Shown one piece after another: positions 3,674 to 5,622 of a stretch of DNA of 5,858 nt. Each line of letters begins with the position of its first letter. Positions within the stretch are counted from its first letter, which is position 1. A program made the position numbers and the translations under genes. The stretch comes from a virus (lineage: Duplodnaviria > Heunggongvirae > Uroviricota > Caudoviricetes). Location: IMG/VR virus record IMGVR_UViG_2778261179_000010; one strand, 5' to 3'. Under the pieces are notes generated by a model. It did not search any database, was not told where the DNA came from, and saw nothing but the letters and a program-made list of their open reading frames with translations.

Positions 3674-4075
3674 TTATTTTAACTCATAGATCAGACAGTC
3701 AACGATTTCTAAACCATTTACCATAGAATTAGAAACGCGAACTTTACCATCGTTGACTCTAGCAAATCCTTTTAACATTTTATAAACAAAAGCTGAATCC
3801 CCCTTAGCCTCAATTGCTTCTAATGGTATCGGCTTATACTTTTTTGATATGCTATTTCTATTTATCTCACTGATTTTTCTATATATTTCTGCCGGCCCAC
3901 GTTCTGAGAAGTCACTGATAACTAAAATATATCTCCAAGATAGATCTGGGTAATAAAACCACATTGCAGCATCAATAGTTAAATTCTGTAACTTGAGTTT
4001 TTTTAACAAAAATTGACCTGAGAATTCCATATCTTTTGTCAACTCTCTGCCGATTACCAGTGTGCTTTTACCCAT
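3674..4075 (-). CDS. Hypothetical protein, 133 aa, second gene of the HEPN cassette (candidate cognate partner)
   Basis: Track ORF. The ATG at 4075 has a GGAG Shine-Dalgarno about 10 nt upstream and lies 22 nt inside the 3' end of the upstream HEPN gene. AT-rich codon usage like its neighbour. I see no nucleotidyltransferase (GS...DxD) or other recognisable motif. Confidence 0.6.
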   Translation of the reverse strand: MGKSTLVIGRELTKDMEFSGQFLLKKLKLQNLTIDAAMWFYYPDLSWRYILVISDFSERGPAEIYRKISEINRNSISKKYKPIPLEAIEAKGDSAFVYKMLKGFARVNDGKVRVSNSMVNGLEIVDCLIYELK

Positions 4076-4470
4076 TTCAAAACTCCAGAATTTTGGTCAC
4101 CTACAGCATCAAACAATTGTTCGGCCATAGCTTTACTTATGTTATTGTCGTATCTAAATTGCTCGCTCCAGTCTTTAACGACCGACCAGTTAATCTCCAA
4201 CGAAACATCATTTTTTGCGTCAGCAATCAAAATTTGATGTAAGTTGGCAATTTTGAGAAGTTGCGACAAATCATGAGTATATGAATCATTTACGACTTTT
4301 TTGTTTGGAAACTCATGTTGTAAAAATGACTTGGCAATACAGGCCTTCAATGCACATTCAACTGCATACCCACAAAGATAATATGCACCATGAAAAAAGC
4401 CATGATCAAGCAAGCATTTGGCCTCATTAAGCCTAGTGTCAGATAATGCTTCAAGGTCGTTTTTATTCAT
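4054..4470 (-). CDS. HEPN-domain-like protein, 138 aa (candidate toxin/RNase or nucleotide-binding component)
   Basis: Track ORF. The N-terminal helix pair LNEAKCLLDHGFFHGAYYLCGYAVECALKACIAK, the HDLSQLLK segment and C-terminal FRYD fit the classic HEPN four-helix signature. No obvious Shine-Dalgarno. The region is markedly AT-rich relative to the flanking prophage genes. Confidence 0.62.
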   Translation of the reverse strand: MNKNDLEALSDTRLNEAKCLLDHGFFHGAYYLCGYAVECALKACIAKSFLQHEFPNKKVVNDSYTHDLSQLLKIANLHQILIADAKNDVSLEINWSVVKDWSEQFRYDNNISKAMAEQLFDAVGDQNSGVLKWVKAHW

Positions 4471-4715
4471 ACAATTATAACTTGAATTATCCTAATTTTT
4501 ATGATTATACCCTTATCAGGTATGATGTAGGAACTGAAAACAATATTGGATATCATTTTCGGTATTTCTCTGCAAATTCCAGCCCACAGGATCTCGGTGT
4601 ACAATCTGTCGCTGATCGCGCAAATTTAGGGTCAATCACTTCATTTTTTGCATCAAACCCTCACTAACATCGAACGATTATAGTACAAGTAGTGTTCTTG
4701 ACTTCTCATTAAACC
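4471..4715 (-). promoter_or_regulatory. AT-rich promoter region of the HEPN cassette with two perfect TATAAT hexamers on the - strand (4509..4504 and 4682..4677)
   Basis: About 300-nt intergenic region between the ant-like gene stop and the HEPN ATG. The proximal TATAAT is about 34 nt upstream of the ATG. The matching -35 elements are weak (for example AAGTCA). Confidence 0.35.
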
Positions 4716-4769
4716 GTCAGCATTCAATTAATTACAAAATACTAGCGGCATTTCTCTCCCGCAACTTTA

Positions 4770-5378
4770 TTACAGCCGTTCAGAACGTAAATGCGTCAAT
4801 ACTCGACTCCACTTATCATCCTGCCACGGCCGGAATTTTACATGTGCCGTTTCTCTGGCAAGGATTGCCTGTGCCTTATTGAGTATCCGGGGATATTCTT
4901 GTTCGATTGAAGTGAAGCGACCGGCTTCGCGGTGTTCTGCTACCTGAAGAAGCGGAGTGACGTTTTGGCAAGCGGTTAACATTGTGTCACTTGCCCGCCA
5001 TAACCAAGCAAGTGTGCAAAGTTCGTTATCAGTGAATTGTTTTGTGATTGGGGATTGTTGAATTTCTCGATCGAGAATATCCAGCACCCAGCGGCGGAAT
5101 TCTTTGGCCACAGGAGTGCGGGCGAACATGGCGATCAGATGGGCGCCACGGAGGGAGAAAATGCGAGTCTTCTTACGATAATTTCCTGAGGTCGTTGATT
5201 CGACGACCTGAGACATTCCGTCAGTAAACTCATCAATATTTTTGTTGTAGATGTCGGTTACTGCTTTGGTGCTGGCATATTTTAATGCTGCCGCCAATTC
5301 TTTGCTGGTAAACCAGATCTGGTTGTTGTGATTTATAGGAGTGAATTTTACATCGCGGAATGCGAGCTGAGTGACCAT
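4770..5378 (-). CDS. Phage antirepressor-like protein (Bro-N / AntA / P22 Ant N-terminal-type domain; Roi-like), about 202 aa
   Basis: Track ORF 4770..5615 begins at a TTG. The domain signature (LAFRDVKFTPINHNNQIWFTSKELAAALKY ... TRIFSLRGAHLIAMFARTPVAKEFRRWVLDIL) starts right after the ATG at 5378, so that start is preferred. The alternative ATG at 5513 cannot be excluded. Confidence 0.6.
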   Translation of the reverse strand: MVTQLAFRDVKFTPINHNNQIWFTSKELAAALKYASTKAVTDIYNKNIDEFTDGMSQVVESTTSGNYRKKTRIFSLRGAHLIAMFARTPVAKEFRRWVLDILDREIQQSPITKQFTDNELCTLAWLWRASDTMLTACQNVTPLLQVAEHREAGRFTSIEQEYPRILNKAQAILARETAHVKFRPWQDDKWSRVLTHLRSERL

Positions 5379-5540
5379 AGCGATAATCTCGTTTTGAATT
5401 TGAGCTATCACCACCGACGACGCCAATCGACTGGTGGTGGACTGTGCAAGGTTGGCGTAACCGGTCAAAACGAAATCCGGCGCTTCCGAAGAAGCCCTCA
5501 CACAGCCCACCATAATTTTTGTGTAGACGTGCACTGCGCA

Positions 5541-5562
5541 TAAAAAAACCGCGAACGCGGTT
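5541..5562 (-). terminator. Small GC hairpin (ACCGC-GAAC-GCGGT) followed on the - strand by TTTTTTTA; candidate intrinsic terminator or attenuator
   Basis: Seen directly. The stem is short (5-7 bp) but the T-run has 7 T's. It lies about 160 nt upstream of the preferred ant-like start. Confidence 0.45.
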
Positions 5563-5622
5563 ATGCGTCGTTTTGATGTCCGGGACGCCAATCCCGTGTG
5601 CCGATTTTGCGGCAACGCACAG

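Follow-up and report, generated by a model that had tools for sequence, protein, structure and literature searches.

An E. coli prophage carries a strictly ordered, overlapping gene pair for a HEPN protein and a partner from an unannotated family

How does a small HEPN protein encoded next to a second small gene relate to the HEPN systems already described? The protein analysed here is of the same class as AF0298 (2hsb), TT1696 (1ufb) and ST0689 (1wol), classical HEPNs of the PF05168 'HEPN-T' class (Anantharaman et al., 2013). For AF0298/2hsb-type HEPN-T and for AbiV, Anantharaman et al. (2013) described an 'alternative active site' pattern in which helix 2 supplies an acidic residue and the insert between helices 2 and 3 supplies an alternative His. 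According to the literature, absence of the Rx4-6H motif is typical of the AF0298-like HEPN-T class, and the HEPN of sacsin, a relative, is regarded as a binding domain. Lactococcal AbiV cleaves rRNA, possesses an Rx4-6H string of its own and is inactivated by the R91A substitution; the antitoxin of this abortive-infection RNase is an RNA encoded upstream of it (type III). In dyads of a HEPN and a minimal nucleotidyltransferase (MNT), the MNT gene occupies the 5' position. The rnlAB pair is HEPN-first and has an anti-phage role, and RnlB binds the canonical RnlA HEPN dimer directly. Finally, HepS, encoded by the Gifsy-1 prophage, is a solo HEPN anticodon nuclease that acts by abortive infection; phage structural proteins activate HepS and also Tha, another HEPN nuclease from a prophage. 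We propose, with about even confidence, that the gene pair described below is a mobile toxin-antitoxin (TA) or abortive-infection cassette that consists of a HEPN RNase and a directly binding protein inhibitor or regulator.

The window, by which we mean the whole stretch of 5,858 nucleotides that was analysed, belongs to a lambdoid E. coli prophage that resembles DLP12 (Table 1). Its minus-strand genes follow the order antirepressor-like, HEPN, 133-aa partner, ybcN/NinB-like, ninE, ybcO, rusA, ylcG and the Q antiterminator quuD. The HEPN and partner genes, hereafter the cassette or module, have a GC content of 32-37% versus 50-54% in the adjoining prophage genes, and because of this difference we regard the cassette as an acquired insert (a 'moron') in the nin region. 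At the cassette's upstream side, the antirepressor-like gene is a mechanical ORF of 281 aa with a TTG start, whereas RefSeq calls a 202-aa 'P22AR C-terminal domain-containing protein'; residues 13-92 of the longer ORF match phage transcriptional-regulator PHROGs, and RefSeq annotates a truncated pseudogene directly upstream. The junction suggests a rearranged or fused remnant. At the other end of the window, the porin gene is oriented opposite to the late and nin genes, and its RefSeq start lies 20 codons downstream of the longest-ORF start.

Table 1. Positions of genes and sequence elements in the window.
Feature	Position	Strand	Details
OmpC/NmpC-like porin gene, prophage-borne	248-1390	plus	Porin_1, E = 3.7e-153
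Perfect 12-bp inverted repeat, 9-nt loop	3572-3604		AAGTCACCGGAG / CTCCGGTGACTT; about 70 nt past the partner stop
Partner gene, 133 aa, alpha/beta protein family, second in cassette	3674-4075	minus	RefSeq 'hypothetical protein', WP_000520500
Dual-coding overlap, 22 nt	4054-4075	minus	HEPN stop 4056-4054; partner ATG 4075-4073
HEPN gene, 138 aa, PF05168/HEPN-T class, first in cassette	4054-4470	minus	ATG start
GGAG Shine-Dalgarno-like element, within HEPN Gly129-Val130 codons	4083-4086	minus	7 nt upstream of the partner ATG
Arg106-Tyr107 codons ('FRYDNN', residues 105-110)	4150-4155	minus	R106 102/103, Y107 103/103
His66 codon ('SYTHDL'), helix 2-3 insert	4273-4275	minus	103/103 modules
Ex3[KR] motif, codons E38-C39-A40-L41-K42 ('AVECALKAC'), helix 2	4345-4359	minus	E38 102/103, K42 103/103
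AT-rich spacer upstream of HEPN, 299 bp	4471-4769	minus	TATAAT hexamers 4682-4677 and 4509-4504, both perfect
BRO-N/P22AR_C antirepressor-like gene	4770-5615	minus	

The initial annotation placed a HEPN-like protein in this window without giving a strand. The ORF is real, lies on the minus strand and is called identically by RefSeq (WP_001038620, 'HEPN domain-containing protein'). Over residues 12-118 its product scores 27.8 bits (E=3e-6) for Pfam PF05168, above the gathering cut-off of 22, and the PF05168 match is precomputed for most of its homologues. The confident AlphaFold model (pLDDT 93.9) predicts an all-alpha HEPN helical bundle with a helix at residues 26-46, an insert at 47-77 and a second helix at 78-98. 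A search of PDB sequences with the family profile returned nothing at E<=1 and one chance match at E<=10. In comparison to AF0298, TT1696 and ST0689, the subfamily has a longer helix 2-3 insert and adds the invariant or near-invariant residues C39, C44, W95, W101, W133 and W138; in addition, its C-terminal tail doubles as the translation-initiation region of the partner, and it is not paired with an MNT.

As first noted from the sequence, the protein contains no canonical Rx4-6H: R-x(4-6)-H occurs nowhere in its 138 residues, among which R13 and R106 are the only arginines. Within FRYDNN, which was named as the nearest equivalent, R106-Y107 is conserved throughout the family. That survey overlooked H66 in 'SYTHDL' and E38-x3-K42 in 'AVECALKAC'. 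Across 103 non-redundant modules K42, P55, H66, W101 and Y107 are invariant, while R13, E38 and R106 are each present in 102. The residues at +4 to +6 from R106 (110-112) are variable in the same modules, with no conserved His among them. Among 115 HEPN homologues, Rx4-6H anchored on R106 was found in just two and RX4HXY in none (0/115); the Rx4-6H strings present elsewhere in the homologues fall at scattered, non-conserved positions. By contrast with the missing motif, Ex3[KR] is present in 115 of 115. In the predicted structure, E38 and K42 fall in the helix at 26-46 and H66 falls in the insert at 47-77, in residue-for-residue agreement with the published description of the alternative site.

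Since the class typically lacks Rx4-6H, its absence does not bar membership in PF05168/HEPN-T. A control is provided by one of the module's own neighbourhoods (locus L070), where a genuine MNT (PF01909) followed by a classical PF05168 HEPN lies beside the module. The MNT-associated HEPN reads AAEKALKG ... KTHDL ... FRYPGD; in an alignment it shares R13, E38, K42, F54, P55, H66, L71, R106 and Y107 with the present family, and by sequence it matches 1ufb (AAEAALKG ... H ... TRYP) with an E-value of 0.016. Thus, absence of Rx4-6H is the norm of the class, including HEPNs paired with a true MNT. We know of no AF0298/TT1696-type HEPN for which RNase activity through the alternative His has been demonstrated. 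A missing Rx4-6H is ordinary for PF05168, the literature explained the variant site in 2013, and on its own the absence matters little. A spatial cluster of H66, R106 and E38 is predicted from the analysis of 2hsb in the 2013 paper. Separately, we note that the near-invariant C39 and C44 flank the Ex3K motif (E38-C39-A-L-K42-A-C44) and that C33 is common (codons at about 4372-4337, minus strand). Such cysteines are odd for a cytoplasmic helical bundle, and a redox or metal role is conceivable.

What is the partner? The second protein matches phrog_5760 alone, a PHROG with no function assigned to it, whereas searches of Pfam, NCBIfam, PADLOC and the PDB sequences returned no match; a profile of its family likewise matched no PDB sequence. 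An exhaustive profile search collected 799 clusters at 50% identity, all of them single-domain and about 125-140 aa long (a word-indexed search collected 32 clusters). In an alignment of 122 members W39, G60 and Y130 are invariant, L12, G20, L27, W47, Y65, R113 and D126 are conserved in at least 90%, and E/D44, R/K48 and R/K131 are conserved by class. The AF2 model (pLDDT 91.9) has the order alpha-beta-beta-alpha-beta-alpha-beta-beta, and with this model Foldseek returned no match at E<=1e-3. By Pfam, no HTH, RHH or AbrB domain is present in either protein of the pair.

The initial annotation is supported in part: the variant active site that it offered as one option agrees with the residue pattern that is present, but its assumption that the partner is an MNT is not borne out. 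NTase Pfam domains are found in none of the 122 partner members, hhalign against an MNT profile built for this comparison gives a probability of 0.15%, equal to that of the HEPN negative control, and the motif GSx(8-14)Dx[DE] is present in 1 of 168 partners versus 117 of 120 real MNTs. In the predicted structure beta1 and beta2 are linked by a tight turn of five residues, which would leave no room for the NTase G[SG] loop. Because the motif, Pfam, hhalign and Foldseek tests are all negative, we have not classed the partner among the MNTs, though its fold may be a catalytically inactive remnant of an NTase. The pair does resemble the type VII system HepT/MntA (DUF86 HEPN plus an MNT of PF01909/PF18765) in that it consists of two genes for a small HEPN and a partner of ~130 aa, is mobile and very widespread, and has a Tyr near the motif Arg. 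However, the family lacks RX4HXY, GSX10DXD is found in 1 of 168 partners, the gene order is the reverse, and the partner has no detectable MNT homology. Indeed, the genuine MntA-HepT and MNT-HEPN dyads that lie beside the module at two loci are readily distinguished from it. A reading in which the partner has decayed far from a typical MNT but can still modify the HEPN, for example at Tyr107, and in which the pair is a divergent HepT/MntA, is highly improbable in view of these motif, profile and fold comparisons, the short beta1-beta2 turn and the order of the genes.

The arrangement of the two genes is itself strictly conserved. As had been noted at the outset, the HEPN gene comes first in the operon, 5' of the partner, and this holds in every locus examined. 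The ATG of the partner takes its A from the end of HEPN codon 132 and its TG from the Trp133 codon (4074-4072). We surveyed the overlap in 80 sequences, the window and 79 further loci. The register is shared by 77 of the 80, in which the partner starts with ATG (61), GTG (10) or TTG (6), and a purine motif resembling a Shine-Dalgarno (SD) sequence is found at the equivalent position in 61 of the 80. The invariant Gly129-Val130 codons (GGN GTN) supply this GGAG-like SD, 7-8 nt upstream of the partner start. The overlap is also present in viral loci. With a sensitive partner profile, the partner was found directly downstream of the HEPN gene at 77 of the 80 genomic loci, and at the other three the contig ends 220-320 nt past the HEPN stop. 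Likewise, the partner is present in 42 of 42 IMG/VR loci, including one in which the HEPN is just 27% identical, and searches started from two partner homologues found a HEPN upstream in all five places returned. Since register, start codon and SD are all conserved, we infer that translational coupling is probably obligatory and fixed in the HEPN C-terminal tail.

This tail (G129-V-L-x-W133-h-K-x-h-W138-stop; 4054-4086, minus strand) is dual-coding and holds both the SD and the start of the partner, and for this reason the conservation of G129 and W133 may partly reflect a constraint on partner translation initiation. We note two departures from the common layout. At two loci (L013 and L025) HEPN codon 133 is an in-frame stop (TGA or TAG) instead of Trp, with the partner frame open; a pseudogene, an assembly error or a shortened HEPN that retains partner expression could each account for this. 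At a third locus (L058, 3953-4777) a single ORF of 274 aa contains a HEPN (17-151) and a partner (158-273) joined within the usual overlap. If natural, the fusion would speak for physical interaction of the two proteins, but a 1-nt indel in the overlap would produce the same ORF. As the locus stems from a long-read MAG, we discounted it as Rosetta-stone evidence.

The two proteins differ in their rates of change. Mean pairwise identity is 48% for the HEPN versus 29.5% for the partner, and the HEPN is the more conserved in 98.3% of comparisons; the two sets of distances are correlated (Pearson r = 0.74). This difference bears on the reading in which the HEPN has no catalytic activity and serves as an antitoxin or adaptor that binds RNA or nucleotides, with the partner acting as effector or toxin, following an antitoxin-first logic. 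The 5' position is usually the antitoxin's, the canonical Rx4-6H is absent, the sacsin HEPN is treated as a binding domain, and the partner has conserved polar residues of its own (E/D44, R/K48, R113, N120, D126 and R/K131). We nevertheless consider this reading quite unlikely, because the HEPN is far more conserved than the partner and its His/Arg/Glu/Lys/Tyr set matches the predicted alternative site, a set that would be unusual in a mere binding antitoxin. Moreover, toxin-first HEPN systems such as rnlAB are known, and searches with the partner gave no match to a known family of toxins or enzymes.

How widely is the module distributed, and in what surroundings? The HEPN family comprises 438 clusters among 5.8 billion proteins, nearly all of its members being 137-138 aa long, and when GTDB species representatives were scanned with a sequence pattern, at least 585 HEPN loci were recovered, from many bacterial phyla and one archaeal MAG. 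Of 5426 complete E. coli genomes, 190 contain the 1.1-kb cassette, at >=99% identity and always on the chromosome. O26 and O103 are among the E. coli carriers listed, in which RefSeq labels the two genes 'HEPN domain-containing protein' and 'hypothetical protein'. Prophage carriers belong to Shiga-toxin-type E. coli lineages (O26, O103), Klebsiella and Acinetobacter. Among deposited phage genomes near-identical DNA was not found, and at the protein level there was a single match, Klebsiella phage Kp4864-1. In four Acinetobacter prophages (L124-L127) the module lies at the prophage end, with holin and lysozyme genes to one side and the integrase to the other. As this slot differs from the E. 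coli nin region, unrelated temperate phages have captured the module independently.

The flanks of the module are unrelated from locus to locus: 150 neighbours represent 175 Pfam families, and there is no recurrent third gene. No defence-island enrichment was detected among the immediate neighbours, which are mostly housekeeping genes. Three loci have a TA pair adjoining the module, namely MntA(PF01909)->HepT-like(PF01934) at L019 (3109-3745), MNT->PF05168 HEPN at L070 (4921-5706), where a frameshift breaks that HEPN in two, and DUF433->DUF5615 at L128 (2984-3546), which suggests TA-rich islands. The module itself has the generic layout of a type II TA system, a compact bicistron for two small proteins that are co-inherited in variable contexts. 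Taken with its patchy occurrence, foreign composition, carriage by prophages, lack of a conserved neighbourhood and position beside TA pairs, we regard it as a mobile selfish or defence cassette. The housekeeping neighbours, the lack of defence-gene enrichment and the very strong conservation of the HEPN sequence across phyla would also be expected of a heteromer with a housekeeping role outside any conflict, such as a regulatory complex binding nucleotides or RNA, that just happens to travel on prophages. The same patchiness, with all of the E. coli copies at least 99% identical, together with the composition, prophage carriage, shifting neighbourhood and adjoining TA pairs, makes such a role very unlikely.

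Does the partner restrain the HEPN or switch it on? As a sensor or activator it would recognise a phage product and turn on the HEPN RNase, and the pair would be a two-component abortive infection system and no classical TA. The fast evolution of the partner is as expected for a protein facing variable phage triggers, the cassette occupies accessory slots of E. coli and Acinetobacter prophages, HepS and Tha offer a precedent for activation by phage structural proteins, and the partner lacks the DNA-binding domain typical of antitoxins. On the other hand, most carriers of the module are chromosomes of environmental bacteria without phage context, strict coupling downstream of the effector better fits stoichiometric neutralisation, and other TA pairs adjoin the cassette, so that activation by the partner seems unlikely to us.

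We propose instead that the partner is an inhibitor or regulator, and the following sequence of events would fit the TA or abortive-infection cassette. The first gene would encode a classical HEPN acting as a metal-independent RNase, with a catalytic centre in which His66 as general base, Arg106, Glu38, Lys42 and possibly Tyr107 would replace the Rx4-6H dyad. The second gene would be translated by coupling to the first through the conserved 22-nt overlap, and its product, a folded alpha/beta protein, would bind the HEPN directly and keep it inactive or gate it in the manner of RnlB and RnlA. AMPylation, the type VII mechanism, is unlikely, since nucleotidyltransferase motifs are missing from the partner. 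If the partner were lost or titrated away, or if a phage cue arrived, the RNase would be freed and translation arrested, and the outcome would be stabilisation of the prophage and/or abortion of infection by other phages. Against this explanation stands the apparent lack in the partner of a DNA-binding domain, which is common though not universal in type II antitoxins. The rule of an acidic antitoxin and a basic toxin shows no consistent pattern of pI in the family and is reversed in the E. coli pair.

Among described systems, the anti-phage E. coli pairs RnlA/RnlB and LsoA/LsoB, each a HEPN toxin with a protein antitoxin, are similar in that the gene for a HEPN effector comes first and is followed by that for a small folded alpha/beta protein. 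Like the present HEPN gene, the gene for HepS occupies an accessory-gene position within the replication/antirepressor/nin region of a lambdoid prophage, but HepS is solo, has a canonical R100-H105 and lacks a conserved partner. In contrast to AbiV, the cassette has a strictly conserved protein partner, and no structured upstream RNA was found. An RNA antitoxin in the 299-bp spacer was sought by tests that are weak, and these gave no Rfam match, no tandem repeats and a fold z of -1.1. Finally, PDC-M28A, the PADLOC HMM for component A of the candidate defence system PDC-M28, whose profile length is also 138 positions, was matched by 47 of 47 HEPN members tested. These matches are weak (best E 7.5e-12; 1.8e-7 over residues 11-111 for the HEPN of the window), and the partner gave no consistent PADLOC match, so that both components of PDC-M28 were not found together. 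We found no mention in the literature of the two accessions, the PHROG ids or PDC-M28.

Expression of the cassette may depend on its host prophage. A promoter scan of the minus strand upstream of the HEPN gene found no sigma-70 consensus, and the cassette may be transcribed by read-through from the prophage early-right transcript. At its other end, the inverted repeat lies where the low-GC cassette gives way to the high-GC prophage backbone. Since no T-run follows it on either strand, it does not qualify as a canonical terminator, and it could be an insertion-boundary or operator-like element.

What this follow-up adds, at the level of sequence, is a strictly ordered HEPN module, predicted to be translationally coupled and spanning phyla, whose partner family is unannotated and has no recognisable MNT character. 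Tentatively, and with some doubt, we suggest that it represents an undescribed HEPN conflict system, very widespread with its 585 or more genomes at species level and about 800 partner clusters, that combines an RNA-cutting insert-His/Arg-Tyr/Glu-Lys site, a non-MNT binding regulator and a Trp-embedded start codon, and that serves STEC as an abortive-infection or exclusion module. If so, the partner family would be new, unrelated or only vestigially related to MNTs, the stoichiometry of HEPN and partner would be set by a start codon within an invariant Trp codon of the effector, and STEC of the O26/O103 type would carry a prophage-encoded abortive-infection or exclusion module.

With candidate residues that are 100% conserved and a native E. 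coli host, the HEPN family is a convenient test system for the alternative site. A result obtained with it would bear on the RNase potential of MNT-associated PF05168 HEPNs and of sacsin-like HEPNs. The partner, in turn, is a large family without annotation, for which a new antitoxin, a sensor and a dead nucleotidyltransferase are the candidates. Finally, if the module excludes phages or stabilises prophages in E. coli O26/O103, Klebsiella and Acinetobacter, it would bear on phage therapy and on prophage biology.
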